The notes: a model not told the origin generated them from the sequence alone. A stretch of 64,000 nucleotides of DNA from Minisyncoccota bacterium (GCA_018062765.1 JAGORR010000001.1:217249-281248), one strand, 5' to 3'. Positions 4,527 through 41,900 are shown, counted from the stretch's first letter. Translations and numbers: made by a program.

Positions 4527-4544
4527 AGAGGGTCATAATCCTTA

Positions 4545-4575: not shown

Positions 4576-4580
4576 CGTTT

Positions 4581-4847: not shown

Positions 4848-4848
4848 C

Positions 4849-7143: not shown

Positions 7144-7150
7144 CTAACTC

Positions 7151-8170: not shown

Positions 8171-8174
8171 TACC

Positions 8175-8570: not shown

Positions 8571-8635
8571 GGAGCCCCGCCGCATCCTCGCGGCGGGATA
8601 TGCGCGCACGGGTGGGGGCAAGCATGTATGAATTT

Positions 8636-8936: not shown

Positions 8937-9029
8937 GGATGCCGAGGGGTGAATCTCTTTAGTCAGGGGCGCTTCAAAGCGGATAAAAACAGACACGAGA
9001 CCACTGGGTATTTTGGGCTACCCCCGAGC

Positions 9030-9227
9030 CCTGCCGCTCCGAGCCCGGATTTTTGGATTCCCCCCCCGCGAAAAAAGAAAAGGATTTTAGTGCGGACAGG
9101 GGTCGGGGCGAGCGCCGAGTCCGCGAGGCGCGAGTAATCAGGGCTCCTTTGCAAAATGGGTTCTAACGGAGTTTAATAGGGTCTCAGATACACGAGAAAC
9201 GCGCCCCGCAGGGGCGCGTTTCTCGTG
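9030..9227. repeat. right copy of the ~200-bp inverted repeat (IR-R)
   Basis: Reverse complement of 4325-4526; differs essentially only in poly-G/C tract length. Confidence 0.85.
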
Positions 9228-9241
9228 GTAGATTCTAAGTA

Positions 9242-10240: not shown

Positions 10241-10907
10241 AAAGAACGATAATTTGCCGCCGCTTCCCACAACACGCGAGGTGGTGAAGAACCTATTCAT
10301 CCTTGCGATTGTCATCGTGCTCGCGTATGTCGTCACGGTGGTGATTGGTGTGGAGCGGTTGCGGGAACTTGCGATCACACTCGGTCCTTGGGGCGCGCTC
10401 CTCGTCATCGTAGTCAAAATGACCACCATCATTGTTGTGCCCTTGGGAGGCGGCATCGTCTATCCGATTGCAGGCGCGGTGTACGGATTCTGGTACGGGT
10501 GGGCGCTGACCTTAATTGGGGATTTTTTGGGGTTTGCCACCGCGTTCTACCTATCGCGCGCATTTGGTCGGCCTATCGCGCGCTTCTTTGTTCCGCAGAG
10601 CCAGTGGGGTACCTTCGAGCGCGTACTCGCAAAAAGCTCATCTTGGAAGACCCTCATCAAGGCCCGAATCGCGTTTTCACCCCTACCAGAGCTTTTCGCG
10701 TACGCAGCAGGTCTTACCAAAGTGTCGTTCATCGTGTTCATCACCATCATGATGGTGCTCCAGATTCCAGGCACGGCAATCTTCACCTTATTCGGAGACT
10801 TGCTCCTTGCGGGTGACTTCGTCGCGCTCGCGCTTGCTGGGGTTGTTGGTGCGGTGCTTATGTTCGGCGGTGGCTGGCTTCTCCATAAGGACCTCGCCAA
10901 GGACTGA
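10233..10907 (+). CDS. DedA/SNARE-associated (TVP38/TMEM64) family membrane protein
   Basis: GDFLGFATAFYLSRAFGRP motif region and hydrophobicity pattern typical of DedA. Confidence 0.7.
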   Translation: MLEKNDNLPPLPTTREVVKNLFILAIVIVLAYVVTVVIGVERLRELAITLGPWGALLVIVVKMTTIIVVPLGGGIVYPIAGAVYGFWYGWALTLIGDFLGFATAFYLSRAFGRPIARFFVPQSQWGTFERVLAKSSSWKTLIKARIAFSPLPELFAYAAGLTKVSFIVFITIMMVLQIPGTAIFTLFGDLLLAGDFVALALAGVVGAVLMFGGGWLLHKDLAKD

Positions 10908-17385: not shown

Positions 17386-19179
17386 CTACGCATTTTTAAA
17401 CAGGTACACATAGTTGCCGTACCCCTCTTCCTCCATCGACTCCTTAGGAACAAAGCGGAGCGAAGCTGAGTTAGTGCAGAACCGTCTCCCGCCTTCGTCT
17501 ACGGGGCCGTCTTCAAATACGTGTCCGACGTGTCCGGCGTCGCTCCGTATCTCGGTTCGTGTCGTCGAGAGCGAGTTGTCTTCATGCATCGTGACCGAAT
17601 CGTCATCAATGGTGCGCCAGAAGCTCGGCCATCCGGTTCCGGAGTCGTACTTGTGAGTACTTGAAAAGAGCGGCTTGCCCGTCACGATATCGACGTAGAT
17701 TCCTTCTGCCTTATTGTCCCAATACTTGTTATTGAATGGCGACTCGGTGCCGCTCTCTGCAACGACGTGGTAGGCGAGCGGGTCGAGGTGCTTGAGCTTC
17801 TCCACGATTTCCTCGTCGGTATATTCGTACGCGGCGCGCGATTCCGTTGCGGCGGCTTCTTGCTTGGACTCGAGAAACTGTATGGCAGCGTCCTTGGCCC
17901 ATGTCTCCTCAACGAATCCGGCTCTTCCTGATGCCTTCTTGTAGCGTTCGTAGTGGTCAGCTGCTTTCTGATAGTAATCCTGATGGTACGTTTCTGCCTC
18001 AAAGAATGTGGTGAGTGGGATAATTTCGGTGGCGATTGGCGCAGTAAAAAGTCCGCTCTTCTCCAAACGACTTTTTGAATCGAGCGCTGCTTCCTTCTGC
18101 TCGTCGTTTTGATAGAAAATCGCGGTCGTGTACTGGAAGCCCGTGTCAGCAAACTGCCCATCGGTGTCGGTCGGGTCGATGTGTGACCAGTAGATGTCGA
18201 GTATCTCTTCAGTCGTGATGATTTCCGGGTCATAGGTTATCTGCACCGACTCTCGATGCTTGGTCGCTCCCGTCGCAACCGTGATATACGAGGCAGTCAC
18301 TGCATCGCCTCCGGCGTACCCAGAGATCGCACTAACAACACCCGGCTGCTCCTGAAAGTAAGCTTCAGTGCACCAGAAGCATCCTCCGGCAAGGGTAATC
18401 ACTTCATGCACTCCATCTGCGCGCTTCTCATCCTCATTCATGCTGGTGGGAGCGAATCGCTCGATAAGGTTGTTCTCGAGCTGTATCGTCGCGCCGTACC
18501 CAGAATCGAGGATGAATGTCTCTATCTTCTTGTCGAATCCAGTTAGTATCGCGACTCCGACGAGGATAATTAGAACACCGAAGACCTGCTTTATTTTTCC
18601 GGCAGCGTGCATGCGGGAATCAAGTGCGGTAACGATGCGCTGCCCGAAGTACGCGATAGCAAGGAGCGCGAGCGCGAGTCCGAACGTGAAGCCAAGAAGG
18701 TACAGGAGGCCGGTGAGGAAGGTCGCAGGGAGCGCAGTCGCGATGATGAAGAGGTACGTGGGCGAGCAAGTGGTAAACACAGGACCAAGCGCGAGTCCTA
18801 TGAGAGCGTCACCCGCATAACTCTTCTTGCCGTACCCGGCACCTACCGCCTTGTTACTCGCGCGGCTCAACGCGTTCACGAGCGGCACGCGCGCCCAGAG
18901 CGCAGGGAACACAATTGCGATACCTACCAGAATCACGATGCTGCCTGAGAACCAGCTCCAGAATGCGGTTGGGATATCGATAAGAAGCGTCGATGCCTTA
19001 AGTAGCAAGGTGAAGACGATAACCGATACCGAGAGTGAGCCGATGACCACGACGGCGCGCTTCGAGATGTACCGCCCATCGTTCTCCGAGGCACCTATGA
19101 CGACCGGCAAGAAGGGGAGTATGCACGGCGCGAGCACCGTGAATACGCCCGCCAAGATTGATATGCCGAGGAAGATCAT
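17386..19179 (-). CDS. msrAB: CcdA-like thiol-disulfide transmembrane domain fused to MsrA and MsrB
   Basis: N-terminal six-TM CcdA/DsbD domain (APCILPFLP, TTCSPTYL). MsrA domain with GCFWC; MsrB/SelR domain with the GTGWPSF, HxGHVF and RFC motifs. Start chosen at MIFLGISIL, immediately after the upstream gene's stop. Confidence 0.9.
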   Translation of the reverse strand: MIFLGISILAGVFTVLAPCILPFLPVVIGASENDGRYISKRAVVVIGSLSVSVIVFTLLLKASTLLIDIPTAFWSWFSGSIVILVGIAIVFPALWARVPLVNALSRASNKAVGAGYGKKSYAGDALIGLALGPVFTTCSPTYLFIIATALPATFLTGLLYLLGFTFGLALALLAIAYFGQRIVTALDSRMHAAGKIKQVFGVLIILVGVAILTGFDKKIETFILDSGYGATIQLENNLIERFAPTSMNEDEKRADGVHEVITLAGGCFWCTEAYFQEQPGVVSAISGYAGGDAVTASYITVATGATKHRESVQITYDPEIITTEEILDIYWSHIDPTDTDGQFADTGFQYTTAIFYQNDEQKEAALDSKSRLEKSGLFTAPIATEIIPLTTFFEAETYHQDYYQKAADHYERYKKASGRAGFVEETWAKDAAIQFLESKQEAAATESRAAYEYTDEEIVEKLKHLDPLAYHVVAESGTESPFNNKYWDNKAEGIYVDIVTGKPLFSSTHKYDSGTGWPSFWRTIDDDSVTMHEDNSLSTTRTEIRSDAGHVGHVFEDGPVDEGGRRFCTNSASLRFVPKESMEEEGYGNYVYLFKNA

Positions 19180-19180
19180 C

Positions 19181-19678
19181 CTAGATAATTTGGGCGAGTG
19201 CGCCTGCGAGCGTTGGACTGCCGCTCCACTTCTTAATGAGTGTGCCGTCGGCGGCAACCTGCACGAGGGTGTGCTGGTACGTCACGCCATATTTCTTCTT
19301 GAGCTCTGACTCCGTATCGTAGTCAACCTTCAGTATGCTGACCTCTTCCGGTATGGAGTCTCGATTGGCCTCGATATCGGCATTAAGCCCGCGACATGAC
19401 GGGCACCAAGAGGCGTGGAAAAACAGAACGACATCACCGCTCTCCGCGCGAGCAAGTTTTTCAGCCGAGTACGATTCATAGGAGCCTTTCATCATCGACT
19501 CCTTTTCGTCCATCATGCCAGTGTCTTCCTTCATCATCTTGTCTTCTTCCATGCTCGAAGATTCCTGCATCTTCTTATCCATCATTCCGTCCTCAGGCTT
19601 CTGTATGGACGCGTAGGCGACTCCTCCAATCAATACAATGAGTACAAGTCCGATGGCGACTACGATGGTTTTGTTCAT
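19181..19678 (-). CDS. membrane-anchored thioredoxin-like protein with a Met-rich linker
   Basis: TM anchor, a 45-aa segment with 13 Met (MMDKKMQESSSMEEDKMMKEDTGMMDEKESMMK), then a Trx fold with WCPSC. Confidence 0.75.
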   Translation of the reverse strand: MNKTIVVAIGLVLIVLIGGVAYASIQKPEDGMMDKKMQESSSMEEDKMMKEDTGMMDEKESMMKGSYESYSAEKLARAESGDVVLFFHASWCPSCRGLNADIEANRDSIPEEVSILKVDYDTESELKKKYGVTYQHTLVQVAADGTLIKKWSGSPTLAGALAQII

Positions 19679-19783
19679 GGTGAATCAATAAGTACTAATG
19701 CCTTGTATGAAGATAAGTGTAGTAAAGAAAAACGCGCATGTAAAGCATACTTTACATGCGCGTTGTGGATAGAAAGCGCTTCT

Positions 19784-20146
19784 CTACAGGTTTTTATCGG
19801 TCCAGATACGCGTCAGAATCTTTACGATAATCATCGTAATCAGTGTCACTACGAGCCAGGGGTCAACAGAATGCGTGTACCCTTGCACGACTATCGCTAA
19901 CGTTAGTATTCCGGAACCCGCGAGGTATGCATTCCTGCCAGCGAGCGTACGGTGAAGCGCGTCACGCTCATCCGTCATTCGCTCGCGCAGTACGAAACTT
20001 GCGAAAATCCCGAAGAGAGCGAGTGTACAAGCGAGCATCGCGAGCACCATCATGTCCGGCATCCAGAAGTGGAAGGGATTAAGGAGGAGTACGGCGAGCG
20101 CAACCAAGCACAGCGTCACGATAGCTTCTAGAAGATTATTTTTCAT
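19784..20146 (-). CDS. small multi-pass membrane protein, partner of the upstream XRE regulator
   Basis: 120 aa, four predicted TM helices. Overlaps the XRE gene by 11 nt, a typical HTH plus membrane-protein pair. Confidence 0.5.
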   Translation of the reverse strand: MKNNLLEAIVTLCLVALAVLLLNPFHFWMPDMMVLAMLACTLALFGIFASFVLRERMTDERDALHRTLAGRNAYLAGSGILTLAIVVQGYTHSVDPWLVVTLITMIIVKILTRIWTDKNL

Positions 20147-20348
20147 AGGTTACTTTAAACAGCTTTTCGACGGGCAGTTTGAAAAAGCCCGCTATCTTAA
20201 GCGCGAGTAGGATGGATGGCGTGTAGTTGCCCTTCTCAAGAGCGATGATGGTCTGCCGACTCACTCCCGCCTTGGATGCGAGTTCTTCCTGGGTCACGCC
20301 CATCTGATTCCTGTGCTTGCTAACGGTGTTCTCTATCCGCTCCTGCAT
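20136..20348 (-). CDS. XRE-family helix-turn-helix transcriptional regulator
   Basis: LASKAGVSRQTIIALEKG HTH motif; 70 aa. Confidence 0.7.
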   Translation of the reverse strand: MQERIENTVSKHRNQMGVTQEELASKAGVSRQTIIALEKGNYTPSILLALKIAGFFKLPVEKLFKVTYEK

Positions 20349-20620
20349 GGCACCAAGTATAGATGCTCAGTAGGAAGTAGTAAAGTTAACTTTACGTGTA
20401 CGCTAGCGAGACTAGGAGTTTCTCTCACAAAATACTTTCGCCGTCGCAAAGACTAGGATTCTGTCACGGTTTGCGGCTAGATTCGTCCAAGCATTCCGAA
20501 TCTAGCTCGCAACCCCGACCCGGACTCGTCGCTTAACCCTGCCCCGCAGGCGCGACTCCGTCTTTCGAATCCTAGTCTCCCAGACAAGCGAAAGACCGCC
20601 TTTCGGCGGCTTTCGTCTTG

Positions 20621-20691
20621 CTGCGAGACTAGGATTCGAACCTAGATAAACGGATTCAGAGTCCGTTGTCCTACCATTAGACGATCTCGCA
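20621..20691 (-). tRNA. tRNA-Gln (anticodon CUG)
   Basis: Minus-strand sequence TGCGAGA-TC-GTCT-AATGGTA-GGAC-A-ACGGA-CTCTGAA-TCCGT-TTAT-CTAGG-TTCGAAT-CCTAG-TCTCGCA-G. U1-A72 pair is typical of bacterial tRNA-Gln. No encoded CCA. A terminator hairpin lies downstream (20590-20618). Confidence 0.85.
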
Positions 20692-20801
20692 ATGCCTTTG
20701 ATTCTACCAAAGTAGACGACGGCAGAGCCGTCGTGCCCCGAAACGATACGACAAAAGAGGGGAGCGGACAACCCTTGGATACCGGGTGCCTAGGGCAGGA
20801 C

Positions 20802-25185: not shown

Positions 25186-25220
25186 CCAGCGCGAGGTGCA
25201 AACCGGCACCTGACGTGTAA

Positions 25221-25246
25221 AGCCCCGGCCAGTATTGGCCGGGGCT
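25221..25246. terminator. bidirectional rho-independent terminator
   Basis: GCCCCGGCC-agtatt-GGCCGGGGC followed by TTTTGG. Confidence 0.55.
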
Positions 25247-25257
25247 TTTGGTGTGTG

Positions 25258-25641
25258 TCAGAGCGCGAGCTCGCGTTCACCGCGCACTTCGATAACGGGC
25301 TCTGGGGCCGTTTCCGACGCCACAATGTCCGGGAAGACGCCCTTCATCGCGTTTGGAAAATAGCGGAGCGCAGCCGCACGTGGCACCGAGAATTGGAACC
25401 CGCCGCGCCGCAAGTTCTTCGCGAGGTAGAGCTTCGTGTCTCGGACAAAGCATGTACCGCCGAAGAAATTTATACCCTCGCCGTTTACAGCGCGGTACAC
25501 GTTCCGATCTGCCCGGAGTACGTTTGAGACGCGTGGGTAACAGATGGTTCCAATCATCTCGCCGTCGGTTGTGATGGCGATGTGAATCAAAGAGCCGGCC
25601 TGTATCTTCCGGCCGGTTTCGCGGCACATGAGCAAGGCCAT
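25258..25641 (-). CDS. hypothetical protein
   Basis: 127-aa ORF; no confident family assignment. Confidence 0.35.
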   Translation of the reverse strand: MALLMCRETGRKIQAGSLIHIAITTDGEMIGTICYPRVSNVLRADRNVYRAVNGEGINFFGGTCFVRDTKLYLAKNLRRGGFQFSVPRAAALRYFPNAMKGVFPDIVASETAPEPVIEVRGERELAL

Positions 25642-25772
25642 GGCAGTCCTCCATTCGGGTTCAATCTGTTTCTGACTATCTCACTGCCTGAGTCTCGTGC
25701 AAGCGAGACTCGCTTTCTGCATTAAATATGGCATAATGCAGAAAGACACTGAAACAATCTGGGGGATTTGAA

Positions 25773-26270
25773 ATGGGTGATGAAAATGTAATCCGTCCCG
25801 CCTTCGGGAAGGGCGGGTTCAAGCCGAAGGTGGTCGCGAAGGACCCTGAGCCGGTGCGTACGCTCCGGCCGGAATCGAAGTCTGCCGCGAAGACGCCTGA
25901 ACGGGTAATCGATGAGGCGGAGGAATACGAGGAGCCGACCGAAGAGGAGCTGGCTTCTCCCGAATTCCTGCGCGACTTCAAGTTCTGCTTCATGAACATG
26001 GAGATCATGCGTTCGTTCAATGAGCGGGGTACCGAACTGACCGATTTCGTCATCGACGTCCTCGAGTATCCGGGTTTCCGGCAGGAATCGCTCGCGCTCC
26101 GGCGAGGAGTGTTCCGAGAGCACTCTCTGGAGCAGATTTGCGAACTCCTCCTTTGCTCTGGGAAGCCGGAATGGCAAGCGAAGCCTGCCTGGTACGGCGC
26201 CATCTACATCGAGGGGCATATGAGGCAGCGCAAGCTCATCGGCAGCCTGCCGAAGGAGACCTCGGATTAA
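25773..26270 (+). CDS. hypothetical protein (acidic, charged N-terminus)
   Basis: 165 aa; GGGGA RBS; terminator hairpin at about 26296-26325. Confidence 0.4.
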   Translation: MGDENVIRPAFGKGGFKPKVVAKDPEPVRTLRPESKSAAKTPERVIDEAEEYEEPTEEELASPEFLRDFKFCFMNMEIMRSFNERGTELTDFVIDVLEYPGFRQESLALRRGVFREHSLEQICELLLCSGKPEWQAKPAWYGAIYIEGHMRQRKLIGSLPKETSD

Positions 26271-26404
26271 GAGGGGTAGTGTGTGGAAGATAAAGGACCC
26301 TGGGGTTTTGCCCCGGGGTTTTTCGTATGTAGCTGGTCCAGGACGCACCCCTCGACATGGCTACTTAGAGAGGTAGGGGTCGATTTCTAAAAAGAAGTTT
26401 TTGT

Positions 26405-27091
26405 GTGATTATTCAATCAATGGCCCTGGGTAATATAACGAGTCAAGTAATCTCAAAACAACGTGTTTCCGACCATGGTGAGGTACTAACGGCTGAGCGA
26501 GAGGTAAACGCCATGCTCGACATGGTGCGCCATGAGACCGAACGCATTGACTCCCGTTTCCTCGAGCCAGCTTGCGGCACAGGCAATTTCCTAGCTCCAG
26601 TGTACGAAAAAAAGCTTGCCGTCATTAAAAAGCGCTACGGTAAAAGCCAGCTAGAGTTTGAACGCTACGCCGTTACAGGCACAGGCTCCATCTATGGAGT
26701 GGACATTCTTGAGGACAACATAAAACTCTGCCGCAAGCGCCTGTTCGACATCTTTAACGAGCTCTACACGGCGCTCTACAAGAAAAGAAGCAAGGATGCT
26801 GTCCGCAGTGCAGTCCGCTTTGTTCTCAACAGAAACATTTTGTGGGGTGATGCACTTTCTCTTAAAACGGTGTCAAAACAGCCGATGCCCATCGTGTTCT
26901 CCGAGTGGTCTATGGTACGCGGTAGCATGATGAAAAGGCGCGACTTCTCGTTTGAGGAGCTTATGCCCGACAGCGCGGCAAAAGTGAGCCTGTTCAAGCA
27001 AGCAGAAATATCCGATCTTGGGACACCAGCGTTCATACCGACCCCTGTAAAAGAGTACCCACTTACTCATTTCCTTTCACTACACGTATGA
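26405..27091 (+). CDS. Eco57I/gamma-class N6-adenine DNA methyltransferase homolog lacking catalytic motif IV (SAM-binding pseudo-methyltransferase?)
   Basis: Motif X-like HGEVLTAEREV and a canonical motif I FLEPACGTGNFL. The expected (D/N)PP(Y/F) position reads NRNILWGD. 228 aa; may start at the internal ATG at 26420. Confidence 0.55.
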   Translation: MIIQSMALGNITSQVISKQRVSDHGEVLTAEREVNAMLDMVRHETERIDSRFLEPACGTGNFLAPVYEKKLAVIKKRYGKSQLEFERYAVTGTGSIYGVDILEDNIKLCRKRLFDIFNELYTALYKKRSKDAVRSAVRFVLNRNILWGDALSLKTVSKQPMPIVFSEWSMVRGSMMKRRDFSFEELMPDSAAKVSLFKQAEISDLGTPAFIPTPVKEYPLTHFLSLHV

Positions 27092-28578
27092 AAGTTCCGA
27101 CGAGCTACAACCCCGATGTTCTTACGTGTCTTGCCAACCTTAGCAACGACGAGGTGTTCACACCGCCAGCGTTGGTGAACCAAATACTCGACACCTTGCC
27201 GTCCGAAATTTGGCGAGACAAAACTGCCACTTTTCTTGATCCAGTCTCTAAGACAGGTGTTTTTCTGCGCGAAATAGTCCGCCGCCTCAATGATGGTCTG
27301 GTCAAAGAAATCCCCGACGCACAAGCACGGCTCGATCATATTTACACCAAGCAGGTGTTCGGCATCGCCATCACCGAGCTCACGGCACTGCTCTCGCGAC
27401 GCTCGCTTTACTGCTCGAAAGACGCAAGCGGCAAGTATTCAGTAAGTGAGGCGTTCAAAAGTGCTGACGGCAATGTACGCTTCGAGCGCACCGAGCATAG
27501 CTGGAAAGACGGTAAATGTGCCTTCTGTGGTGCAGGCCAGGCCGAGTATGATCGCGCCGAGGCGCTTGAGACCCATGCTTACCAGTTTATTCACACCGAC
27601 AACCCTAGTACACTGTTTAATAATATGAAGTTTGATGTAATTGTCGGCAATCCACCATATCAGTTGAGCGATGCTGGCGATAGCACGGGCGCATCGCCGA
27701 TATATCAACTCTTTGTTGAGCAAGCAAAGAAACTTCAACCACGCTTTTTGACAATGATTATTCCGTCGCGTTGGTTTGCAGGAGGGAAAGGGCTTGAGGG
27801 TTTTCGTGAAGATATGTTGAACGACGGACGAATCTCACATTTGGTGGACCATCCAATCGCGTCAGATGTTTTCCCCGGTATCAAATTGAATGGTGGTGCT
27901 TGCTATTTCCTATGGAATCGCGAATATCAGGGAGAATGCGAAGTAACCATAAAGATGAGCGGCATGGAGGATACAACAAAACGGCGACTCAATCAGTTCG
28001 ATACATTTGTTCGTTTCAACAAGGCAATCTCAATTTTGGATAAGGTGCAGTCGAAAAAGTATTCATCGTTGAGTGAGCTGGTATCACGACAAAAGCCGTT
28101 TGGACTCCGTACTTTTGAGCGTCCAACAGGAAAGGGTACTGTAAAGCTATACGCGAACAAAACCATTGGAAAGATTGAAAAGTCTGCAATAACCGTCGGG
28201 TTCGATATGTTGGATTCGTGGAAAGTATTTATTTCGATGGGCTATGGTGAAGGTGGCGAGGCGCGCGAATATCCGCGCATGATTTTGGGTAAACCCATCG
28301 TTGCTGCCCCGGGAATTGCATGTACAGAGACATATATTGTTGTTGGGAAATATAAGACAGAAAAAGAGGCAGAAAATCTTGCTAAATATTTACAAACGAA
28401 GTTCTTGCGATTCTTGGTCGCTCTTCGTAAAAACACGCAACACGTTACTAGAGATCGGTTTTTATTTGTGCCCGATTTGCCAATGAAAGAAGAATGGACA
28501 GACGAAAAGCTTAACAAGCTTTTCCGTCTGACAAAAGAGGAGATCGAATTCATTGACATGATCGTTCGTCCCATATAG
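27088..28578 (+). CDS. N6-adenine DNA methyltransferase, gamma class (Eco57I family)
   Basis: Motif X DEVFTPPALV, motif I region LDPVSKTGVFL (non-canonical), motif IV VIVGNPPYQ; 496 aa; start overlaps the upstream stop (ATGA). Confidence 0.8.
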   Translation: MKVPTSYNPDVLTCLANLSNDEVFTPPALVNQILDTLPSEIWRDKTATFLDPVSKTGVFLREIVRRLNDGLVKEIPDAQARLDHIYTKQVFGIAITELTALLSRRSLYCSKDASGKYSVSEAFKSADGNVRFERTEHSWKDGKCAFCGAGQAEYDRAEALETHAYQFIHTDNPSTLFNNMKFDVIVGNPPYQLSDAGDSTGASPIYQLFVEQAKKLQPRFLTMIIPSRWFAGGKGLEGFREDMLNDGRISHLVDHPIASDVFPGIKLNGGACYFLWNREYQGECEVTIKMSGMEDTTKRRLNQFDTFVRFNKAISILDKVQSKKYSSLSELVSRQKPFGLRTFERPTGKGTVKLYANKTIGKIEKSAITVGFDMLDSWKVFISMGYGEGGEAREYPRMILGKPIVAAPGIACTETYIVVGKYKTEKEAENLAKYLQTKFLRFLVALRKNTQHVTRDRFLFVPDLPMKEEWTDEKLNKLFRLTKEEIEFIDMIVRPI

Positions 28579-28580
28579 CT

Positions 28581-31094
28581 ATGGCCGATTTTTTTCCGCC
28601 ACGGCCGGAGGCAAAGCCTACTATCTACGCCTACAAGCTCAAAGGTGTGGAAACGCATGCTCATCTCCTCAAGGTGGGCTACACGACGCGCGATGCGCAA
28701 AGCCGCATTGCCGAACAGCTCACCACCGCGCGTTTGCAATACGAAATTGTTTTTGAAGAACCGGCTATGCGTGCCGATGGTTCGACATTTACAGATACCG
28801 ACGTGCATCGCCACTTGCGCGGAAAGCGCATCACGAATCCGGAAGGAGAGTGGTTTGAGTGTGGAGTGAAAGACGTGCGAGCAGCGTACGTTGCCATACG
28901 AGAGGGTGTGTTCAACGAAGAAAACCGCACACAAACATTCGGAATGCGCCCAGAGCAAGCCGATGCTGTGGTAAAAACCGCCGCGTATTTTACCGAGGCG
29001 CATGCTGACGGCAAGCAAACACCGCATTTTTTATGGAATGCCAAAATGCGCTTCGGGAAAACATTCACCACGTACCAGCTCGCCAAAAAGATGGGATGGA
29101 GGAGGGTGTTAGTGCTCACCTTTAAGCCCGCCGTGCACAATTCCTGGCACGAGGATTTGATGAACCATGTAGATTTTGAGGGATGGCAGTTTGTCTCGCG
29201 ACGGGGGAATACGCTCAATCATGCTGACATTGATGAAAAGAAACCATTTGTCGTATTTGGTTCGTTCCAGGATTTTCTCGGAAAAAACAGCGCAGGCGGG
29301 ATAAAAGCAAAGAATGAGTGGGTACACGAGACAACATGGGATGCTGTCGTCTTTGATGAATACCACTATGGTGCGTGGCGCGAGAGCGCGAAGGATTTGT
29401 TTGTCGGTGAGGAAAAAGACGTACGCAAGGACGAAGAGGGTGAGGCGTTGGAGTACTTTGACGAGCGCGCAGTGCCGATAAAGACCGGCGCGTATCTCTA
29501 CCTTTCGGGTACCCCATTTCGGGCTATTGCGAGCGGAGAATTTATCGAAGAGCAGATTTTCAACTGGACGTACAGTGACGAACAGCGGGCAAAAGAAGAG
29601 TGGGACAGTGCGAAGGGACCCAACCCATATGCGTCGTTGCCACGGATGGTGATGCTCACCTATCAGTTACCTGATGCTATACGTGAAGTGGCGATGGGTG
29701 GGGAGTTCAATCAGTTTGATTTGAGCCAGTTTTTTGCTGCAGAAGGAAAGGGCAAGAGCGCGAAATTTTTGTATAAAGACGAAGTGCAAAAGTGGCTGGA
29801 TTTGATTCGCGGTGCGTTTGCTGAAACTACCGTAGACAATTTGAAGCTGGGAGCGAAGAAGCCTGCGTTGCCGTTTTCTGACACGCGGCTTTTGAATGTG
29901 CTATCGCACACGTTTTGGTTTTTGCCGAGTGTAGCGGCCTGTCATGCTATGGCGAATTTGCTCAAGCAACGACAGAACAAGTTTTTTAACGAGTACGAGG
30001 TGATTGTGGCAGCGGGTACGGCGGCGGGAATTGGCGTGGCGGCGCTTGAGCCTGTGCTGAGGAAGATGGGCGAGCCCTTGAAGACGCGCACAATTACGCT
30101 TTCGTGCGGCAAACTGACGACGGGTGTATCCGTGAAGCCATGGACAGGTATTTTTATGCTGCGCAATGTAGCGAGCCCCGAGACATATTTTCAGGCGGCT
30201 TTTCGCGTGCAGACACCGTGGACTGTGCCGAATCCGGAGGGCAACGCGCCAAATCGTGAAGAAATCATCAAGCAGGAATGCTATGTTTTCGATTTTGCTC
30301 CGGATCGCGCTTTGCGACAGATTGCCGAGTATAGTTCTAGACTCAATTTGGATGATTCGGTCAGTCCCGAGAAAAAGGTGGAGGAGTTTATTCACTTCTT
30401 GCCGGTCTTGGCCTATGACGGAAGCGCGATGAATCAGATAGACGCGGCGGGAATTTTGGATATGGCGATGAGCGGGACCACTGCCACGTTGCTTGCGCGG
30501 CGTTGGGAGAGTGCGCTTTTGGTGAATGTCGACAACTATACTCTGGCGCGCTTGATGAACAGTGATGAAGCGATGCAGGCATTGATGAGTATTGAAGGCT
30601 TTCGTGCTCTGAATCAAGATATTGAGACTATCATCAACAAGTCCGGTGTGGTGGAGAAACTGAAAAAAGAAGCGAACGATCGGACGTTGACGAAGAAAGA
30701 AACAGAGTCATTGAGCGACGCCGAAAAAGAATTGAAGGGCAAGCGTAAGCAGGTGCAGGAAAAGCTCATCAAATTTGCAACTCGCATTCCGGTGTTTATG
30801 TATCTCACCGACTACCGCGAGCATACTTTGAAGGACGTAATCAATGAGCTTGAGCCGGACTTGTTTAAACGCGTTACCGGTCTTACTAAAAAGGACTTCG
30901 AGCTCTTGGTGAGCTTAGGTGTATTCAACGATTCGTTGATGAACGACGCGGTTTACAAATTCCGTCGATATGAGGATGCGAGTTTGGCGTACACCGGCAT
31001 AAACAGGCACGAAGGGGAGAATGTTGGTCTTTTTAGCACAGTCCTTTCTGTAAAAGAATACGACCAAACATTCATAAATACTCCAGAAGAGTAG
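28581..31094 (+). CDS. GIY-YIG (T5orf172-like) nuclease domain fused to an SF2 (SNF2/ResIII-like) helicase
   Basis: N-terminus TIYAYKLKGVETHAHLLKVGYTTRD...EGEWFE. Helicase motifs: Q-like TFGMRPEQADAV, I NAKMRFGKTFT, II VVFDEYHYG, III LSGTPF, V LTTGVSV, VI QAAFRVQTP. 837 aa. Confidence 0.6.
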   Translation: MADFFPPRPEAKPTIYAYKLKGVETHAHLLKVGYTTRDAQSRIAEQLTTARLQYEIVFEEPAMRADGSTFTDTDVHRHLRGKRITNPEGEWFECGVKDVRAAYVAIREGVFNEENRTQTFGMRPEQADAVVKTAAYFTEAHADGKQTPHFLWNAKMRFGKTFTTYQLAKKMGWRRVLVLTFKPAVHNSWHEDLMNHVDFEGWQFVSRRGNTLNHADIDEKKPFVVFGSFQDFLGKNSAGGIKAKNEWVHETTWDAVVFDEYHYGAWRESAKDLFVGEEKDVRKDEEGEALEYFDERAVPIKTGAYLYLSGTPFRAIASGEFIEEQIFNWTYSDEQRAKEEWDSAKGPNPYASLPRMVMLTYQLPDAIREVAMGGEFNQFDLSQFFAAEGKGKSAKFLYKDEVQKWLDLIRGAFAETTVDNLKLGAKKPALPFSDTRLLNVLSHTFWFLPSVAACHAMANLLKQRQNKFFNEYEVIVAAGTAAGIGVAALEPVLRKMGEPLKTRTITLSCGKLTTGVSVKPWTGIFMLRNVASPETYFQAAFRVQTPWTVPNPEGNAPNREEIIKQECYVFDFAPDRALRQIAEYSSRLNLDDSVSPEKKVEEFIHFLPVLAYDGSAMNQIDAAGILDMAMSGTTATLLARRWESALLVNVDNYTLARLMNSDEAMQALMSIEGFRALNQDIETIINKSGVVEKLKKEANDRTLTKKETESLSDAEKELKGKRKQVQEKLIKFATRIPVFMYLTDYREHTLKDVINELEPDLFKRVTGLTKKDFELLVSLGVFNDSLMNDAVYKFRRYEDASLAYTGINRHEGENVGLFSTVLSVKEYDQTFINTPEE

Positions 31095-31103
31095 TAAAAA
31101 TCT

Positions 31104-31991
31104 ATGGCACTTTTTCAATCAAAAAACGATAAGGTTACACAGGTCGGTATAGACCTGTCGCAATTTAGAAACGAGGCTGCCCTACGAGATTTTTTTGCTG
31201 GAAATCTTGAGGAACTTTTAGGACTTCGATTTCTTGCGAATGAATACAGAACCACAGATGGGCGTATAGACACCTTGGCAATTGATGAGGTGGGTACTCC
31301 GGTAATAATTGAGTACAAATGGGATGAGAACGATGCTATTCTCCCGCAAGGCTTGTCCTACATGGCTTGGCTAAAAGACAATAAACGTTTATACGATTTG
31401 CTCGTATCAGATAGACTAGGGAAAGATATCAAAGTGTTTTGGGACATTCCGCGTCTCATTCTTGTAGCACAGCGCTTTGATCGTCGCACGCTCGCTGCCG
31501 CCGGAGAAGCGAAAAATAGTGTTGAACTCATTAAATATACACCTTACGACTCGGGCATATTACATCTTGAAACAGTTTACGGTTCTGAAAAAGTAAGAAC
31601 AGTTTCAGAAACAGTAGCTAAATTGTCATCAAAAGGTGTCAAATATTCTCTCGACCATCATTTAAATAGGGTAAACGAGGATGTTAAGCAGATGTTCTAC
31701 GCTCTTCAAGCAGAAATTCTTAAATGGACAAACGTAGACGAGAGGATCGATCAAAAAGTAGGGATAACGTATCGTACGACCAAGAGTTTCGTCCGTTTCG
31801 AGTTCGGTAAGAGCTATGTGAATGTTTTGGTACGAGACCCACGCTACGATCACAAAATTGACCCGAAAGGTCTATTGAAGGATGTGTCCTCGTTCGGCTG
31901 GGGTTATAAGGGGGTTGCTAAATTGAAATCGAAAGAGGATGTACAGGATGTTCTTGAGTTAGTGCGGGCATCGTACGAATCTACCCTATAA
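31104..31991 (+). CDS. PD-(D/E)xK (NucS/DUF91-like) nuclease domain plus a DUF5655-like C-terminal domain protein
   Basis: GRIDTLAIDEVGTPVIIEYKWDE fits a D...(E/D)xK core. C-terminal region resembles DUF5655. 295 aa. Confidence 0.45.
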   Translation: MALFQSKNDKVTQVGIDLSQFRNEAALRDFFAGNLEELLGLRFLANEYRTTDGRIDTLAIDEVGTPVIIEYKWDENDAILPQGLSYMAWLKDNKRLYDLLVSDRLGKDIKVFWDIPRLILVAQRFDRRTLAAAGEAKNSVELIKYTPYDSGILHLETVYGSEKVRTVSETVAKLSSKGVKYSLDHHLNRVNEDVKQMFYALQAEILKWTNVDERIDQKVGITYRTTKSFVRFEFGKSYVNVLVRDPRYDHKIDPKGLLKDVSSFGWGYKGVAKLKSKEDVQDVLELVRASYESTL

Positions 31992-32147
31992 CGAGAGGCA
32001 ATTTATATTGCATGTTGCTAAACCTAGTTCTAAGCAGGTGCTAGTTTCAATCAATAGATAAGCGATATTTTTGGCTATTTACATGACAAATGGCTGTGAG
32101 ACAATTATTGGGAATCGGCGTAAGAAACCGCTCCTCACATCGTCTTC

Positions 32148-33518
32148 ATGCAAGTGTCTGTCATTTTCCGCGCTCTTGGTGCTTTCATAGCGCTTTTGGG
32201 ACTTCTCCTTACCCCGTACTCCGCATTCGCCTCACTTAACGGCGATGCGGGCGTATACGCGGACGCTTCTGATCGCCGCGGGCTTTCTGTCTCAGCGTCT
32301 ACCGCCATCGATGGTCTTGGTACTAGCCCCGCATCTGTCGTACCCATGCCGATTCTTTTCGGCGTTTCGGTAGCGAATGTAAAGTCGGATTTCGGGGACC
32401 CGCGCGGCGGGGGAACGCGCACGCACGAGGGCCAGGACTTTATGGCACCTTCCGGGACGCCTATCGTCTCTCCAACTGATGCCGTAGTGCTTAAAACCGG
32501 CTCTGGTCCGACCTCAGGCAAGTACGTCTACACCGCAAACCCGGGCGGGGAGACCTTCGTTTACATGCACCTCTCCGAGATTGCGACTATCGCGGCCGGA
32601 CAGAAGCTTGAGGCGGGGGACGTCATCGGGTACGTAGGGGACACGGGGAACGCAAAGGGTGCTGGCGCGCACCTTCACTTTGAGATTCGTAAGAACCGCG
32701 TGCCGCAGGACCCGTACCCGCGCCTTGCCGACGAGTTTTCTATAGAAGAGAAAATGGAATTTCTCGCAGGTGTGTTTAAGGATTCGGACAACGACACGAG
32801 GCTCGCGGAGCTTCTGGTTGAGACGAGCCGAGGCGAGTTCCTACTAGCGAAGAAAGAGGGTATCGATATTCCAAGCTCGATAGAAGTCGCGCTTGGAGGT
32901 ACGCCAACCAAGAAAGTTGCGGAGGCTGACGATGAAGAGCTTTCGAATGCATCTTCCGTCACTACATCCGTTGGAACTTCTGACCTCGAGCTTGAGGACG
33001 AGGGCCCTGAAGTGGTTGCGATGCAGAAGCTTCTTATTGCGGCAGGAACGGGCCCTGCAGCTAAAGCGCTCGCGGAGGCGGGCGCGACCGGATTCTTTGG
33101 CCCGGCAACCGAGAAGGCACTCATCGAATACCAAAAGACTACAGGGATAAGTCCTGCAGCCGGGTACTTTGGAGCAAAGACGCGCGCAGCGCTTGCGCAT
33201 GGCGCGCCAGCAAAAGCCGCAACTGTCGCCGCTGCAACTCCATCTCCCAAGCCCGCAGCAGACGCATCTGTCGCGAGGGTACTTCCAAATGTTGACCTAG
33301 AAGCGGGTGCTTCCGGTTCCGAGGTGAAGGCTCTTCAGAACGTCATAATTTCGCTGGCAGCAGGAGAGAAAGCAGCGGCACTTAAGGAGGCGGGAGCGAC
33401 CGGATACTTCGGCCCTGCAACGCGCGAGGCACTTGTTGAGCTTCAGAAAGCGAGGGGTATCGCGCCAGCCACAGGGTACTTCGGCAGCCTGACCCGTAAT
33501 ACGCTCGCGGCAAAATAG
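32148..33518 (+). CDS. secreted M23/LytM-family metallopeptidase with two C-terminal peptidoglycan-binding (PG_binding_1) domains
   Basis: Signal peptide. HEGQDF...GDTGNAKGAGAHLHFEI (HxxxD / HxH). Two repeats of G.EV.A.Q..L...G.....G..GFFGPAT..AL..YQ. Confidence 0.85.
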   Translation: MQVSVIFRALGAFIALLGLLLTPYSAFASLNGDAGVYADASDRRGLSVSASTAIDGLGTSPASVVPMPILFGVSVANVKSDFGDPRGGGTRTHEGQDFMAPSGTPIVSPTDAVVLKTGSGPTSGKYVYTANPGGETFVYMHLSEIATIAAGQKLEAGDVIGYVGDTGNAKGAGAHLHFEIRKNRVPQDPYPRLADEFSIEEKMEFLAGVFKDSDNDTRLAELLVETSRGEFLLAKKEGIDIPSSIEVALGGTPTKKVAEADDEELSNASSVTTSVGTSDLELEDEGPEVVAMQKLLIAAGTGPAAKALAEAGATGFFGPATEKALIEYQKTTGISPAAGYFGAKTRAALAHGAPAKAATVAAATPSPKPAADASVARVLPNVDLEAGASGSEVKALQNVIISLAAGEKAAALKEAGATGYFGPATREALVELQKARGIAPATGYFGSLTRNTLAAK

Positions 33519-35092: not shown

Positions 35093-35584
35093 ATGGACGT
35101 TGTCGAGGGCAAGTCGAAAATCAAAGGCGGCGGGCTGTTCGCCGCACGCGCCTTTCGGCGCGGTGGGCGCATCATCAGGATGAGCGGGAAGCGCATGAGC
35201 GAGCGACAGATCGACAAACTCATCGAACGTGGGAAGTTGCGACTCGATGATCCGTTTGAGATTAGTAACGGCCGGTACATTGTGCTGGACCCGTTACCGC
35301 TTCTCGCCAATCACTCCTGTAACCCGAACGCCGGCGTACGCGGCATTGACGAACTTGTCGCGCTCCGCGCTATCAAGAAGGGCGAAGAGATTACCTACGA
35401 CTACTCCACGATGGTGGGGGACACGGCGCCCCACGAAACTCCTTGGACGATGCGTTGCCGCTGCGGAGGAAAAACATGCCGCACGAAGGTGGGCAATTGG
35501 CGCACTATCCCACCCGCGCGCCTCGCGCACTATAAGCGCCAAGATGCGCTTCCGACTTTCGTACAGAAGCTCGCCAATGGGTAA
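35093..35584 (+). CDS. SET-domain protein (putative protein lysine methyltransferase)
   Basis: GGGLFAARAF, NHSCNPN, ELVALRAIKKGEEITYDY and a post-SET Cys cluster CRCGGKTC. Confidence 0.8.
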   Translation: MDVVEGKSKIKGGGLFAARAFRRGGRIIRMSGKRMSERQIDKLIERGKLRLDDPFEISNGRYIVLDPLPLLANHSCNPNAGVRGIDELVALRAIKKGEEITYDYSTMVGDTAPHETPWTMRCRCGGKTCRTKVGNWRTIPPARLAHYKRQDALPTFVQKLANG

Positions 35585-36156: not shown

Positions 36157-36399
36157 ATGGCGTATTACGTGTACATGCTCGAATGCCGCGACGGCTCCTT
36201 ATATACCGGCATCGCCACCGATGTATCACGGCGGGTCAAGGAGCATAACGAGTCTCCACGGGCGGCGAAATATACGAGGAGCCGCAGGCCCGTGAAGCTC
36301 CTGCGCAAGGAGCGCTTCATGTCGCGCGGGAAGGCGCTTTCGCGGGAAGCGGCCATAAAGCGTCTCCCCAGGTCGGCGAAGCTGGCTCTGATAGGATAA
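36157..36399 (+). CDS. stand-alone GIY-YIG nuclease-domain protein (YhbQ-like)
   Basis: YYVYMLECRDGSLYTGIATDVSRRVKEHN; 80 aa. Confidence 0.8.
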   Translation: MAYYVYMLECRDGSLYTGIATDVSRRVKEHNESPRAAKYTRSRRPVKLLRKERFMSRGKALSREAAIKRLPRSAKLALIG

Positions 36400-38949: not shown

Positions 38950-41900
38950 ATGACTCATATTACTTTCGCTTCGCGATCGGCTATCGCCCGATTCGCAAGC
39001 GCGCTCACGGTGTTCGCGCTCGTCGCGACACCGTTCATGACTCTTATTCCTGCATCGGCGCATGCGACCGCGCCGACACCAGCAAGCATTTCGATTGATA
39101 CTGTCGAAGATGATAATGGCTCATATACTTCGCCTTTTGATTTCTCATGCCCTGTAGATGGTAATGAAGGAGAAATAACCATCTACGGTAGCGGAGCGAG
39201 CGCAAGCAACTCCCCGGGGCAGATTGAAGACTATGCCGTTGCAATAGATTGGGGAGATGGGAGCGCAACAACCACAGATCTTGGCACGTTCACTCCTCCT
39301 TCAGGGACGTCTACGTTCACGTACGAATTCACAGCTTCCCATTCGTATTCCTCCTACGGACCAAAAACTGTCACTGCATACCTTTACCATGGAAGCCTAA
39401 ATGGAAACGATGGTGATGCTGTGGCGACAATCACTTTATCTCCTTGCAGCACCGATCCGGGTGTGACCACCGACGCTGCAGACAACATCAGCCACACGGA
39501 CGCTACTATGCACGGTACCAACGGGCCTGTAGCAGCGACAAACTCCTCGTACTGGGTCTCCCTTGCGCCGATTGATACCGGCTCGTCCTCCATTCCGCCA
39601 GGCGTCTACTCAACCCCGACTCAGGGAGCGGTAGCTGCTAATGGCGCCCTTGCCGGGACGCCCCTTTCTTCTGTCGCGACTTCCGGCATCCCAGGAAACA
39701 TCCCAGGCGGTATACAACCAGATACCACGTACTACTTCGTTGCGTGGATCGAAGTCGGCGGAGACTGGTATCCGGGCGAAGTCCTCTCTGTCACGACCCT
39801 CCCTGATCCTGAAGTACCGCCGGCCTGCGGAATCATGGATAACACCACGTTCGACGGATTCTCTCTCGGCAGCGTAAACGGCCAGGGCGGATGGGGTATA
39901 ACCGGTCCCTACGACCACGCTATCGTCGATAACACCTACGGCTTCCCAACTTTCGGTTGTAAGACGCTTCGTATCTCGAACGCCGTAACCGCTGGTTCGT
40001 TCGGTGACCAAATCTTCTCCTACTCAGTCGCCAACGAGGCAGGTGAGACTGTTGCTGAGAATAACGGCATGTCAGGGGGTACTCGCCAGGAGCGCTTCGA
40101 GGCAGAGTTCGATATCGCCTCCGCTGATGCAGACGTTTACCAGCCGGGCCTCGCTGTCACTGTCTCTCCCGACCGGGGTGATGGCGCTCGCATGAGCTAT
40201 CTTCGCTTCGAGGATTCCCCGGACGGTATCGATGTCTATTTCTACGACGTGCAGAGCTCGACTGATCCTGCGAACTTCGTCCAGACCCAGATCGCAAATG
40301 ATCTTCCGCGCACCTCGCCGCACACGGTGAAGCTCGTCATGGATTTCGTTGACGGCCCGGTAAGTCCGGCAGCGCTCCCTGCGAACGATGTCGTCGAAGT
40401 CTTCATCGACGGCGTCTCCGAGCATATCGGGACAAGCTGGGAAAACTATTACCGCTACGATAATGAGTCGAACCCTGGCCTTATCGACACGAGCCGCACC
40501 GTCGACTCGCTCCTCTTCCGTGTCGCTGGCACGGCTGCTCCGGAAACGGATGAGGAGGGCTTCCTCTTCGACAATGTCTCCATAGAGACCGGCCCTACAC
40601 CAGGCCCTGTCGTAGAGACCTCGACCGTGACCCTCTGTAAGTACGCAGACACGTACCCCGAGGAGACTCCACTCCCAGGATGGACGCTCACTCTTACCGG
40701 CGACACCGTACAGGAAAGTTTCGCCGTCCCTGTTGCAGACCCTGTAGGTGTTAACTCAAATCCTCTCGTAGCCGGAGTTTCCTACGTGGCAACGGCGATG
40801 GGTACTTGGCTCAATGACCGGCCAGATGATGCGCCTGAAGGAAACGATGTCGACGCTGAGTACTCGACGATCGACGAGTGGGTAACCCAGATGGACGGCT
40901 ACGACGGATTCGGTACCAATATCCTTGAGCTCGAGATCAATGAGACCGATGGCGAGTGGGGTACATACAACAGCAGCCATACGTACGCACAGGCCTTCAC
41001 CGTTGCTGCTGACGGCCCTGCGAACTTCCGGATCTTCGATGGCGACGGTGCGCATGTTCAGCAGCCAAGCTGGTTTGCCGACAACAAAGACAGCACGCTC
41101 GAAGTAGAGATCTCCGAAGGATATGCCGGCGTAACTGGAGAGAACGGCTGCGTAACGTTCGAAGATGTGCCATTCGGTAGCTACGAAGTAGGCGAGGTCA
41201 TGCAGGACGGCTGGGAGAACGAATCCGGACTTGGCGAGGTAACGGTGGATGAGGAGGAAATGGTCTTCGATGTCGTCAATCATAACGACGACTTCGGCAA
41301 TGATTCCTGCATGCTCGTAAGCGACACAACGACCCTCGAGGGTGGTACTGCTTCCGACCTCGTGCCGGAGCCGCATCATGAATCATGGACCGCCGTAGTA
41401 GACATGCTCGCGATGTGGATCTGGGGAGATGAGGAAGTCACTGATCCGACTGGTGAGGAGACTCAGGTCTTCACGAAGACGTTCTGGCTTGAGTCCGTAC
41501 CAGCGTCTGACGCGACCCTGGTCATCGGAGCCGATAACTCGTACGAAGTCGAACTCAATGGCACTCCAGTGGGTAACGATGCCAACGAGGACAACTACAC
41601 TAACGCTGAAAAGGACACGATTACGATTCCTATGGCGGACTTCGAGCTCGGTGCGAACACGCTCGTCTTCACGGTGAAGAACATCGCGTTTGGCGGCGGC
41701 ACGCAGGAGACGAATCCGGCCGGACTCATCTACAAGCTCACTATCCCAGGAACGGAGTGTCAGCAGACGCCTCCTGACCAGGCGGAGCTACAGGTCCACA
41801 TCTACAAGTACATCCAGGATGAGAACGATGCTATAGCGCTCGCAACCGAGGGAAGCTTCCCAATGAGCGCGACCTGGGACGCTGCCAACATCGGCGCGGG

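Follow-up and report, generated by a model that had tools for sequence, protein, structure and literature searches.

The closest described relatives of the locus reported here are the DrdVI-type "split methylase" restriction-modification (R-M) systems, a Type IIG-like family already present in REBASE and in print (PMC6430315, PMC4996451, PMC10113651), whose members carry a small methylase subunit (M1), a larger one (M2), and a restriction subunit (R) described in DrdVI as "a fused translocase and REase" (restriction endonuclease) with a GIY-YIG domain (PMC4996451). The M1-M2 pairs methylate adenine (N6-methyladenine, m6A), within GCAGCC in the case of DrdVI and within GCACY in the case of MaeIV, as established by cloning and by SMRT (single-molecule real-time) sequencing (PMC6430315, PMC10113651), and it was New England Biolabs (NEB) that cloned M1 and M2 together and named the pair a split methylase. 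We found no published cleavage mechanism or structure for the family. Here we analyze a stretch of 64,000 nucleotides from a Minisyncoccota bacterium (GCA_018062765.1 JAGORR010000001.1:217249-281248; hereafter the window), in which four genes, numbered 1 to 4, lie at positions 26405-31991. A first-pass annotation, made from the sequence alone, had taken these genes for an undescribed four-gene restriction or defense system. We find instead that genes 1-3 (M1, M2, and R) are a new, intact copy of the catalogued DrdVI-type family and that the island they form with gene 4 is a small defense island, not an undescribed four-gene system. Our preferred reading, to which we assign a probability of roughly 85%, is that positions 26420-31094 hold a horizontally acquired, DrdVI-type split-methylase, Type IIG-like, ATP-dependent R-M system and that gene 4 is a separate passenger, making this a mini defense island of two systems.

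DrdVI and M1-M2.MaeIV (Methanococcus aeolicus) have the same three genes as the window, in the same order and of the same sizes. Measured against the genes of pDrdVI from Deinococcus wulumuqiensis NEB 479 (CP031164), full-length identity is 39% for gene 1 and M1.DrdVI (residues 9-222 aligned), 48% for gene 2 and M2.DrdVI (8-496), and 57% for gene 3 and DrdVI (1-825). The window has each of the features by which we recognize a DrdVI-type system: a fusion of a T5orf172 domain to a superfamily 2 (SF2) motor as R, a small M1 just upstream of M2, an M2 of the Eco57I family with one target recognition domain (TRD), and the order M1-M2-R. It shares with DrdVI itself the fusion of a GIY-YIG (T5orf172) domain to a translocase and the Eco57I-type, gamma-class m6A methyltransferase (MTase) with its single TRD, whereas DrdVI is plasmid-borne and the window copy is chromosomal, with a PDC-S18 gene appended and a TRD only 35% identical. 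The PADLOC R-M profile PDLC03626 (REase_MTase_IIG, 1359 positions), a hidden Markov model (HMM), spans gene 3 and gene 2, matching the former over profile positions 152-827 (7e-32) and the latter over 1006-1316 (7e-38). Gene 4 matches a PADLOC entry of its own, PDC-S18, and a cluster first thought to have no existing assignment thus carries named entries at the HMM level.

The same three genes recur widely. Searching plasmids with gene 3 (tblastn) returned 81 records, and the same trio in the same order was found in Rhizobium phaseoli pRphaN671a, Sphingopyxis plasmid 4, and Deinococcus wulumuqiensis NEB 479 pDrdVI, with an "N-6 DNA methylase" of ~210 aa followed by an Eco57I-domain methylase of ~530 aa and a GIY-YIG/DEAD-box protein of ~845 aa. 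Enterococcus plasmids carry a variant with the same domains, in which a small and still separate M1 lies upstream of a single R-M2 polypeptide of 1456 aa arranged as T5orf172-helicase-MTase-TRD (pDY28-optrA, WP_096710548.1; PDLC03626); in the window R and M2 are separate genes and M2 comes before R. A scan of contigs from one genome per species with gene 3 gave at least 599 matched stretches, at least 586 of them confirmed, and from these we assembled a synteny sample of 84 loci consisting of the best 80 of the at least 586 genome loci together with 4 plasmids. The best 80 loci come from Bacteroidota, Planctomycetota, Cyanobacteria, Chloroflexota, Verrucomicrobiota, Proteobacteria, candidate phyla radiation (CPR)/Patescibacteria, Thermoplasmata, and Woesearchaeota. 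Complete M1 genes are present in 63/84 loci and complete M2 genes in 68/84, always upstream of R and in constant order; contig ends truncate the loci that lack them, and the trio is found in all loci with enough upstream DNA. A homologue of gene 4 adjoins the trio in none of the 84. Because the trio recurs and gene 4 does not accompany it, the conserved unit is the trio and not the quartet.

Each of genes 1, 2, and 3 has at least 8000 homologous clusters at 90% identity, placing the DrdVI-type family among the most widespread and best conserved R-M modules seen in this analysis. Identity of R across the best 80 loci, which span most bacterial phyla and some archaea, is 67-73%, including loci from Thermoplasmata (L046) and Woesearchaeota (L052). 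Such conservation is unusually high for an R-M component and, as judged from sequence comparison, would imply very frequent horizontal transfer. For this window the result has little import, since it adds one more intact member to a catalogued R-M family, followed by a known type of hitchhiker gene; the family as a whole merits closer attention.

The four open reading frames (ORFs), all on the plus strand and tightly packed, were confirmed as first described, and so was their location in an AT-richer stretch: the island has a GC content of 0.479 and the remainder of the window one of 0.556, the island's value being the minimum among all stretches of the same length in the window (background of 474 non-overlapping segments: mean 0.555, sd 0.015, minimum 0.517). 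Genes 1 and 2 overlap by 4 nt, as had been reported, and the two following gaps measure 2 and 9 nt, a trivial departure from the 3 and 10 nt given before. Gene 1 can be read from a GTG at its 5' limit, although the NCBI call for an identical protein starts at the ATG at 26420 (Table 1). The GC content of gene 4 (0.422) falls below that of genes 1-3 (0.47-0.50), which suggests that it was acquired separately. The flanks are chromosomal housekeeping genes (ABC-F ATPase, M23 peptidase, CTP synthase, GlmS, and MsrAB), and the island, the lowest-GC segment set among them, is foreign DNA that was horizontally acquired. We rejected a prophage origin in view of the same flanking genes.

Table 1. Features of the island and its left edge, in window coordinates
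Feature	Position	Strand	Description
Gene 1, from GTG	26405-27091	+	228 aa
M1 subunit (gene 1, from ATG)	26420..27091	+	223 aa
M1 motif I (FLEPACGTGNFL)	26558..26593	+	Canonical AdoMet-binding loop; from family alignment
M2 subunit (gene 2)	27088..28578	+	496 aa; Pfam Eco57I 5e-38
M2 non-canonical motif I (FLDPVSKTGVFL)	27232..27267	+	Lys55 where the GxG loop has its first Gly
M2 catalytic motif IV (NPPY)	27649..27660	+	N-P-P-Y-Q in 69/69 family members, preceding Gly in 67/69
M2 TRD (residues ~276-475)	27913..28512	+	Most variable part of the trio
R subunit (gene 3)	28581..31094	+	837 aa; N-terminal T5orf172 (GIY-YIG superfamily) and SF2 helicase-like translocase
R T5orf172 nuclease domain (residues 16-103)	28626..28889	+	Pfam coordinates
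R SF2 motor core	28926..30380	+	GKT (159-161), DEYH (259-262), SGTP, QAAFRVQT; all family-invariant
R motif II, DEYH	29355-29366	+	Residues 259-262
Gene 4, PDC-S18-type	31104..31991	+	295 aa; RecB/NucS-like PD-(D/E)xK domain, then DUF5655
Gene 4 PD-(D/E)xK core	31161..31388	+	E24, D56, E70-x-K72, Q82-x3-Y86
Gene 4 DUF5655 (residues 184-293)	31653..31982	+	Pfam PF18899, 3e-8, 34.1 bits against a cut-off of 24
Terminator-like GC hairpin and T-run	26298..26323	+	Read from sequence: CCCTGGGG-TTTTG-CCCCGGGG-TTTTT

The two methylase genes divide the motifs of a gamma-class enzyme between them. M1 is, by its predicted fold, a half-Rossmann module for binding S-adenosylmethionine (SAM, AdoMet), with motifs X, I, II, and III and without the catalytic motif IV. 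Its Pfam matches are weak and to N-terminal parts of MTases (MmeI_Mtase and N6_Mtase), its motif I reads EPACGTGNFL, and it has no NPPY. Across 64 family members, motif X (G-E-V-x-T), motif I (E-P-A-C-G-x-G-N-F-L), and the Asp or Glu of motif II are each kept in 64/64, motif III (G-D-A-L) is retained, and neither motif IV nor a TRD is present; 11 of the 12 positions of motif I are identical in at least 62/64 members (9 of them in 64/64), the twelfth being T, N, or D. The AlphaFold2 (AF2) model of M1 (predicted local distance difference test, pLDDT, 80.8) shows beta1-alphaA-beta2-alphaB-beta3 plus a hairpin, or half a Rossmann fold, and in a Foldseek search with it the matches to CamA, MmeI, and LlaGI are confined to their N-terminal parts. 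The first-pass annotation was therefore right to see in gene 1 an MTase homolog without NPPY, but its label of pseudo-MTase does not stand, and we rejected a truncated pseudogene or decayed pseudo-MTase, because the M1 family is conserved, at 63 loci, with invariant SAM-binding motifs.

M2 is predicted from its sequence to be an Eco57I-family, gamma-class N6-adenine DNA methyltransferase with a C-terminal TRD. In addition to Eco57I and PDLC03626 it matches PADLOC MTase_II (1e-47), and GNPPYQ is present, so that its earlier identification as a gamma-class adenine MTase holds; the enzyme is nonetheless not fully canonical, a family-wide trait, with Lys55 in motif I in 69/69 members and A, G, or S at the acidic position of motif II, which is acidic in 0/69. 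Its AF2 model (pLDDT 78) comprises a whole gamma-MTase fold including the TRD, most similar to CamA (E~1e-15), then to BrxX/PglX, M.TaqI, BpuSI, and LlaBIII (4xqk; E=2e-9). The TRD has a mean family identity of 38%, against 65% for the catalytic half, and the corresponding identities to M2.DrdVI are 35% and 60%. This is the pattern one would expect of diversifying specificity, and with a TRD so distant from that of M2.DrdVI the recognition site here is probably other than GCAGCC. When genes 2, 3, and 4 and profiles built from the families of genes 1 and 2 were compared by sequence with every PDB chain, the only matches were marginal ones on the MTase motif I region.

Aligning the two families with hhalign places M1 residues 10-106 on M2 residues 11-105 (95.6% probability, E=1.2e-8), and M1 is therefore a paralogue of the N-terminal subdomain of M2 rather than simply a piece cut off from it. 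The degeneration is reciprocal: M1 keeps the SAM-binding motifs, and M2 keeps NPPY and the TRD. From these motifs we infer that the competent half for AdoMet binding most likely comes from M1, and catalysis and DNA recognition from M2, which amounts to a concrete, testable model of a split methylase. Two further observations concern this pair. Between beta2 and the NPPY strand, M2 residues ~109-147 (window 27410-27530) hold a conserved Cys/His cluster (C109, H137, W139, C144, and C147), in a region where AF2 confidence is low, that could be a zinc site. The phage family phrog_11371 (unknown function, 383 positions) matches window 26405-28578 with the C-terminal end of M2 at profile positions 192-245 followed by the N-terminal half of M1 at 278-368, an order suggestive of phage proteins in which pieces of M1 and M2 are permuted or in tandem.

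The description of gene 3 as a GIY-YIG/T5orf172 domain joined to an SF2 core with DEYH was confirmed by Pfam (T5orf172 2e-8, MUG113, ResIII 5e-6) and by motifs I (GKT), II (DEYH), III (SGTP), and VI (QAAFRVQT, fitting QxxFRxQT). The nuclease residues Y16-x-Y18, K31-x-G33-x-T35, R42, H76, and E90-W91 are at least 95% conserved among 82 sequences, and the C-terminal region of R, around residues 600-800, is very highly conserved across the family.

Natural R-M2 fusions have the Type ISP domain order nuclease-motor-MTase-TRD, and for this reason R and M2 are taken to act as one complex. In the working model, M2 would use its C-terminal TRD to recognize a short, asymmetric site and, together with M1, would methylate one adenine (m6A) on one strand, thereby marking self DNA, with M1 giving the AdoMet-binding half-domain and M2 the NPPY catalytic loop and DNA recognition. 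R would associate with the methylase and, on unmodified DNA, would move along by means of its SF2 motor and cut with its T5orf172/GIY-YIG nuclease, as Type ISP and Type III enzymes do. Gene 4 would have come to lie right after R and probably shares its transcript. The characterized motifs GCAGCC and GCACY are both asymmetric, and since GCAGCC has an adenine on one strand only, its modification is a hemi-methylation. Hemi-methylation is a feature of Type III (reviewed in PMC12707154), Type ISP, and Type IIL systems. The homology, synteny, motif conservation, and folds on which this model draws were observed here, and methylation by homologous M1-M2 pairs is taken from the literature.

Modification, an ATP-dependent SF2 motor, and a nuclease together do make up the Type III/ISP-like logic from other parts that had been noticed at first, and this functional logic holds, as does the absence of HsdS, a Res-type nuclease, and BREX or DISARM core genes in domain and HMM searches of the island genes. 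Type ISP enzymes (LlaGI and LlaBIII) resemble the trio in combining a nuclease, an SF2 motor, a gamma m6A MTase, and a single TRD, with an asymmetric site and methylation of one strand, and by analogy translocation-coupled cleavage is the likely working principle of the trio. They differ in being single polypeptides with an Mrr-type PD-(D/E)xK nuclease, whereas the window has three polypeptides, a T5orf172/GIY-YIG nuclease, and the extra M1 half-domain; we rejected Type ISP membership because the ORFs are three and separate (the R-M2 fusion occurring in Enterococcus relatives only) and the nuclease is T5orf172/GIY-YIG-like. In Type III systems, an SF2 helicase with a C-terminal PD-ExK nuclease serves as Res and a beta-class N6_N4 MTase as Mod; an RE_endonuc match is missing from gene 3 and an N6_N4_Mtase match from gene 2, so this class was rejected as well, and a genuine Type III pair is found in a metagenomic locus described below (L086). 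BREX and DISARM were rejected for want of core genes (PglZ, BrxC, BrxL; DrmA, DrmB, DrmC), genes 1 and 2 giving weak partial PglX matches (E 0.0007-0.02) and the neighbors being housekeeping genes. The "Type IIG-like" systems OspHL35III and DnmA-YeeB-YeeC (PMC4752239, PMC9973331) likewise bring a single-TRD m6A MTase, an SF2 helicase, and a T5orf172/GIY-YIG nuclease together in one operon, but there the MTase is a single chain of the MmeI family and helicase and nuclease are separate, whereas the window has a single chain for nuclease and helicase and two, M1 and M2, for the MTase.

How the trio works, and whether it still does, can be read in other ways. M2 alone might be the complete, active methyltransferase, with M1 a regulatory or structural pseudo-enzyme partner serving, for example, as a switch between methylation and restriction or as a bridge to R. 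The model of M2 shows, after all, a complete gamma-MTase fold that includes a beta1/motif I region, M1 is paralogous to this region rather than a piece that M2 lacks and stays separate even in the R-M2 fusions, and M.TaqI tolerates a motif I that departs from GxG. The family-wide Lys in motif I of M2 (69/69) and loss of its acidic motif II (0/69), at the very positions that M1 strictly keeps (64/64), argue the other way, as do the joint cloning of M1 and M2 by NEB and the term split methylase; we see M2 acting alone as possible but lean against it. We regard it as very unlikely that the trio has decayed into an inactive relic with its methylase kept on as an orphan or epigenetic regulator, an idea put forward for DnmA-YeeB-YeeC and for fragmented genes of Bibersteinia trehalosi. 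Precedents exist in DnmA-YeeB-YeeC, which gave no phage protection (PMC9973331), and in the frameshifted, inactive DrdVI-like copies of Bibersteinia trehalosi (PMC4996451), but the window has three full-length ORFs whose tight coupling is preserved, with nuclease, helicase, and MTase motifs intact, no deviation in the SF2 motifs of R, and invariant family columns kept at 53/58 (M1), 117/118 (M2), and 387/398 (R) positions.

The reading of the locus as an active DrdVI-type system with a separate passenger has several points against it. In the literature searched we found no restriction activity, cleavage position, or ATP dependence for any member of the family; the restriction half of the mechanism is drawn by analogy, and the label "IIG" in REBASE serves bookkeeping and does not stand for a demonstrated mechanism. 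The division of labor between M1 and M2 is deduced from motifs, and M2 might bind AdoMet alone, M.TaqI likewise being without a perfect GxG motif. The related three-gene DnmA-YeeB-YeeC of B. subtilis did not protect from phage and was judged a relic (PMC9973331). The 9-nt gap and the shared strand are compatible with gene 4 being functionally tied to the R-M genes in this organism, and our comparison with PADLOC and DefenseFinder was made at the level of HMMs, not of full rule sets.

Gene 4 was correctly described as a NucS-like PD-(D/E)xK domain followed by DUF5655, the latter by a Pfam match above threshold and the former by a sub-threshold NucS_C match and conserved core residues. It matches the PDC-S18 HMMs of PADLOC over its full length (PDLC04946, 1.7e-61, residues 2-293; PDLC04945, 2.6e-42). 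Among 51 diverse representatives of its family, conservation is complete at D56, K72, Q82, and Y86 and reaches at least 90% at E24 and E70, and the DUF5655 half has nearly no invariant residues. We rejected its identification as NucS/EndoMS, given 19.1 bits against a cut-off of 24 for NucS_C (over 36 residues) and 23.4 against 216 for the NCBIfam NucS model; what it shares with NucS is only the RecB-like nuclease core. An exhaustive search returned homologues in 1379 clusters at 50% identity with E≤1e-3 and in 631 with E≤1e-10, most of them ~300 aa with the same two-domain layout, a metagenome scan found 5 loci, and a phage collection gave partial N-terminal matches only.

The relatives of gene 4 often lie in or beside R-M operons. 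In Acinetobacter plasmids (15 records, 3 inspected) a relative sits between hsdS and hsdR in 3/3, Cupriavidus has the arrangement hsdM-hsdS-DUF5655-hsdR, and in Rhizobium BG4 the relative stands beside hsdMSR. The Type I R-M operon of Acinetobacter towneri pNDM_SCLZS30 (1399-9970) holds three nuclease-type genes between hsdS and hsdR, namely an HNH endonuclease, a DUF5655 protein, and a PD-(D/E)XK nuclease. In the metagenomic locus L086 a protein 72% identical to gene 4 comes right after a Type III Mod-Res pair and ahead of an OLD-family nuclease; Mod, Res, the gene 4 homologue, and the OLD-family (AAA_15 + TOPRIM) nuclease form a tightly coupled operon there (3651-10528). Relatives in Staphylococcus, Streptomyces, and Lichenicola have no R-M genes nearby. 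The PDC families were delimited by their embedding in BREX, DISARM, or Type I R-M operons, and 145 such candidates are listed as untested (Payne et al., bioRxiv 10.1101/2024.01.29.577857). Gene 4 resembles PDC-S18 in its full-length match and in this habit of sitting in or beside R-M operons; it differs from the defining set in that its host operon is DrdVI-like, and Type III in L086. Literature searches returned no paper on "PDC-S18" and, for "DUF5655", one unrelated genome report.

Other DrdVI-like operons carry cargo of their own. The slot between M2 and R holds PDC-S13 (Bro-N) in 6 loci, PDC-S02 (DUF1016/YhcG) in 4, PDC-S05 (RhuM) in 2, and HEC-01 (ATPase) in 1; SoFic occurs in 2 loci, once between M2 and R and once after R, and the cargo after R further includes GmrSD-like genes (6), a NACHT protein, and an AAA_5 ATPase. 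A same-strand ORF closely follows R in 42/71 loci with enough downstream DNA, and nearly all of these ORFs belong to different families. At the M2-R junction, a cargo hotspot, some 20 DrdVI-like operons carry an insert of 0.3-2.8 kb (for example L009, L016, L036, L054, L069, L081; L032, L038, L039; L040; L047; L065), and L009 has three cargo genes consecutively between M2 and R. Because different operons hold different cargo families, gene 4 is best seen as a separate, interchangeable passenger outside the conserved trio and, from its sequence, as a candidate defense nuclease, any activity of which is a prediction. DrdVI-like operons are a recurrent landing site for candidate defense genes, and guilt-by-embedding searches that look past Type I, BREX, and DISARM can use them as an anchor.

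Against such a passenger stands the proposal that all four genes make up one integrated, undescribed defense system with the NucS-like/DUF5655 protein as a dedicated or second nuclease. The genes do share a strand, a single low-GC island, and a 9-nt junction between genes 3 and 4 with no terminator-like site between them, and the identical four-gene arrangement recurs in four contigs. The proteins of those contigs are, however, 100% identical, and the contigs therefore derive from the same organism; co-occurrence of the quartet in other genomes, which the first-pass annotation had suggested looking for, is confined to them. Gene 4 is missing from all 84 other trio loci, its nearest relatives (72% identity) follow a Type III R-M system, its GC content lies distinctly under that of the trio, and R has a conserved nuclease domain of its own. 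We hold an integrated quartet to be extremely unlikely, and the assignment of the genes at the HMM level, taken with the lack of co-occurrence elsewhere, essentially disposes of the claim of an undescribed system.

A looser bond is conceivable, in which gene 4 is a latent nuclease restrained by the host R-M system and released when a phage inhibits restriction, after the manner of PrrC at the Type IC EcoprrI locus (reviewed in PMC12707154). Both are accessory nuclease genes nested in R-M operons, but PrrC is an ABC-ATPase-type tRNA nuclease, whereas gene 4 is RecB/NucS-like PD-(D/E)xK, with no sequence or domain similarity to it, and the coupling is putative. The repeated nesting of gene 4 relatives in R-M operons of three types, with overlaps or near-zero gaps, and the pairing of conserved catalytic residues with a variable second domain would suit such a guard; many homologues nevertheless stand alone without R-M (Staphylococcus, Streptomyces, and Lichenicola), unrelated and independently acting defense genes such as BrxU are often embedded too, and literature searches found no experimental data on PDC-S18 or DUF5655. 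We consider a guard role unlikely. A broader conjecture, which we think is probably wrong, would have PDC-S18 nucleases be PrrC-like guards that dock on Type I, Type III, and DrdVI-like complexes and fire when a phage disables restriction and, independently, M1/M2 be an MTase with cofactor and catalytic sites on different polypeptides, M2 keeping a degenerate cofactor half. We know of no structural demonstration of such an arrangement for a DNA MTase of the M1/M2 class.

At the left edge of the island, the terminator-like hairpin of Table 1 closes the upstream gene (25773-26270); it is missing from the output of a consensus terminator scan. Promoter and terminator consensus scans gave no more sites than in shuffled sequence, and they therefore provide no evidence on operon structure. 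A repeat search across 25200-32600 revealed no flanking direct or inverted repeats pointing to a transposon or integration site, no integrase or transposase was found near the island, and the island matched none of the E. coli genomes searched by megablast. A few kilobases downstream lie a bacterial SET-domain protein (35093-35584, plus strand, 163 aa) and a free-standing GIY-YIG domain protein (36157-36399, plus strand, 80 aa), and farther on a 1435-aa ORF (38950-43257, plus strand) that matches neither Pfam nor PHROG at the thresholds applied. Identical proteins at NCBI are assigned to a "Candidatus Pacebacteria" metagenome-assembled genome (GCA_017991435.1, JAGOQO010000002.1); the taxonomy of the bin may be wrong, the window having 55% GC and a broad set of housekeeping genes and one carrying contig being 638 kb long. 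A second, milder low-GC patch (19000-20700; 0.485-0.51) adjoins the only tRNA of the window (tRNA-Gln, 20620-20691, minus strand) and may be another insertion site.

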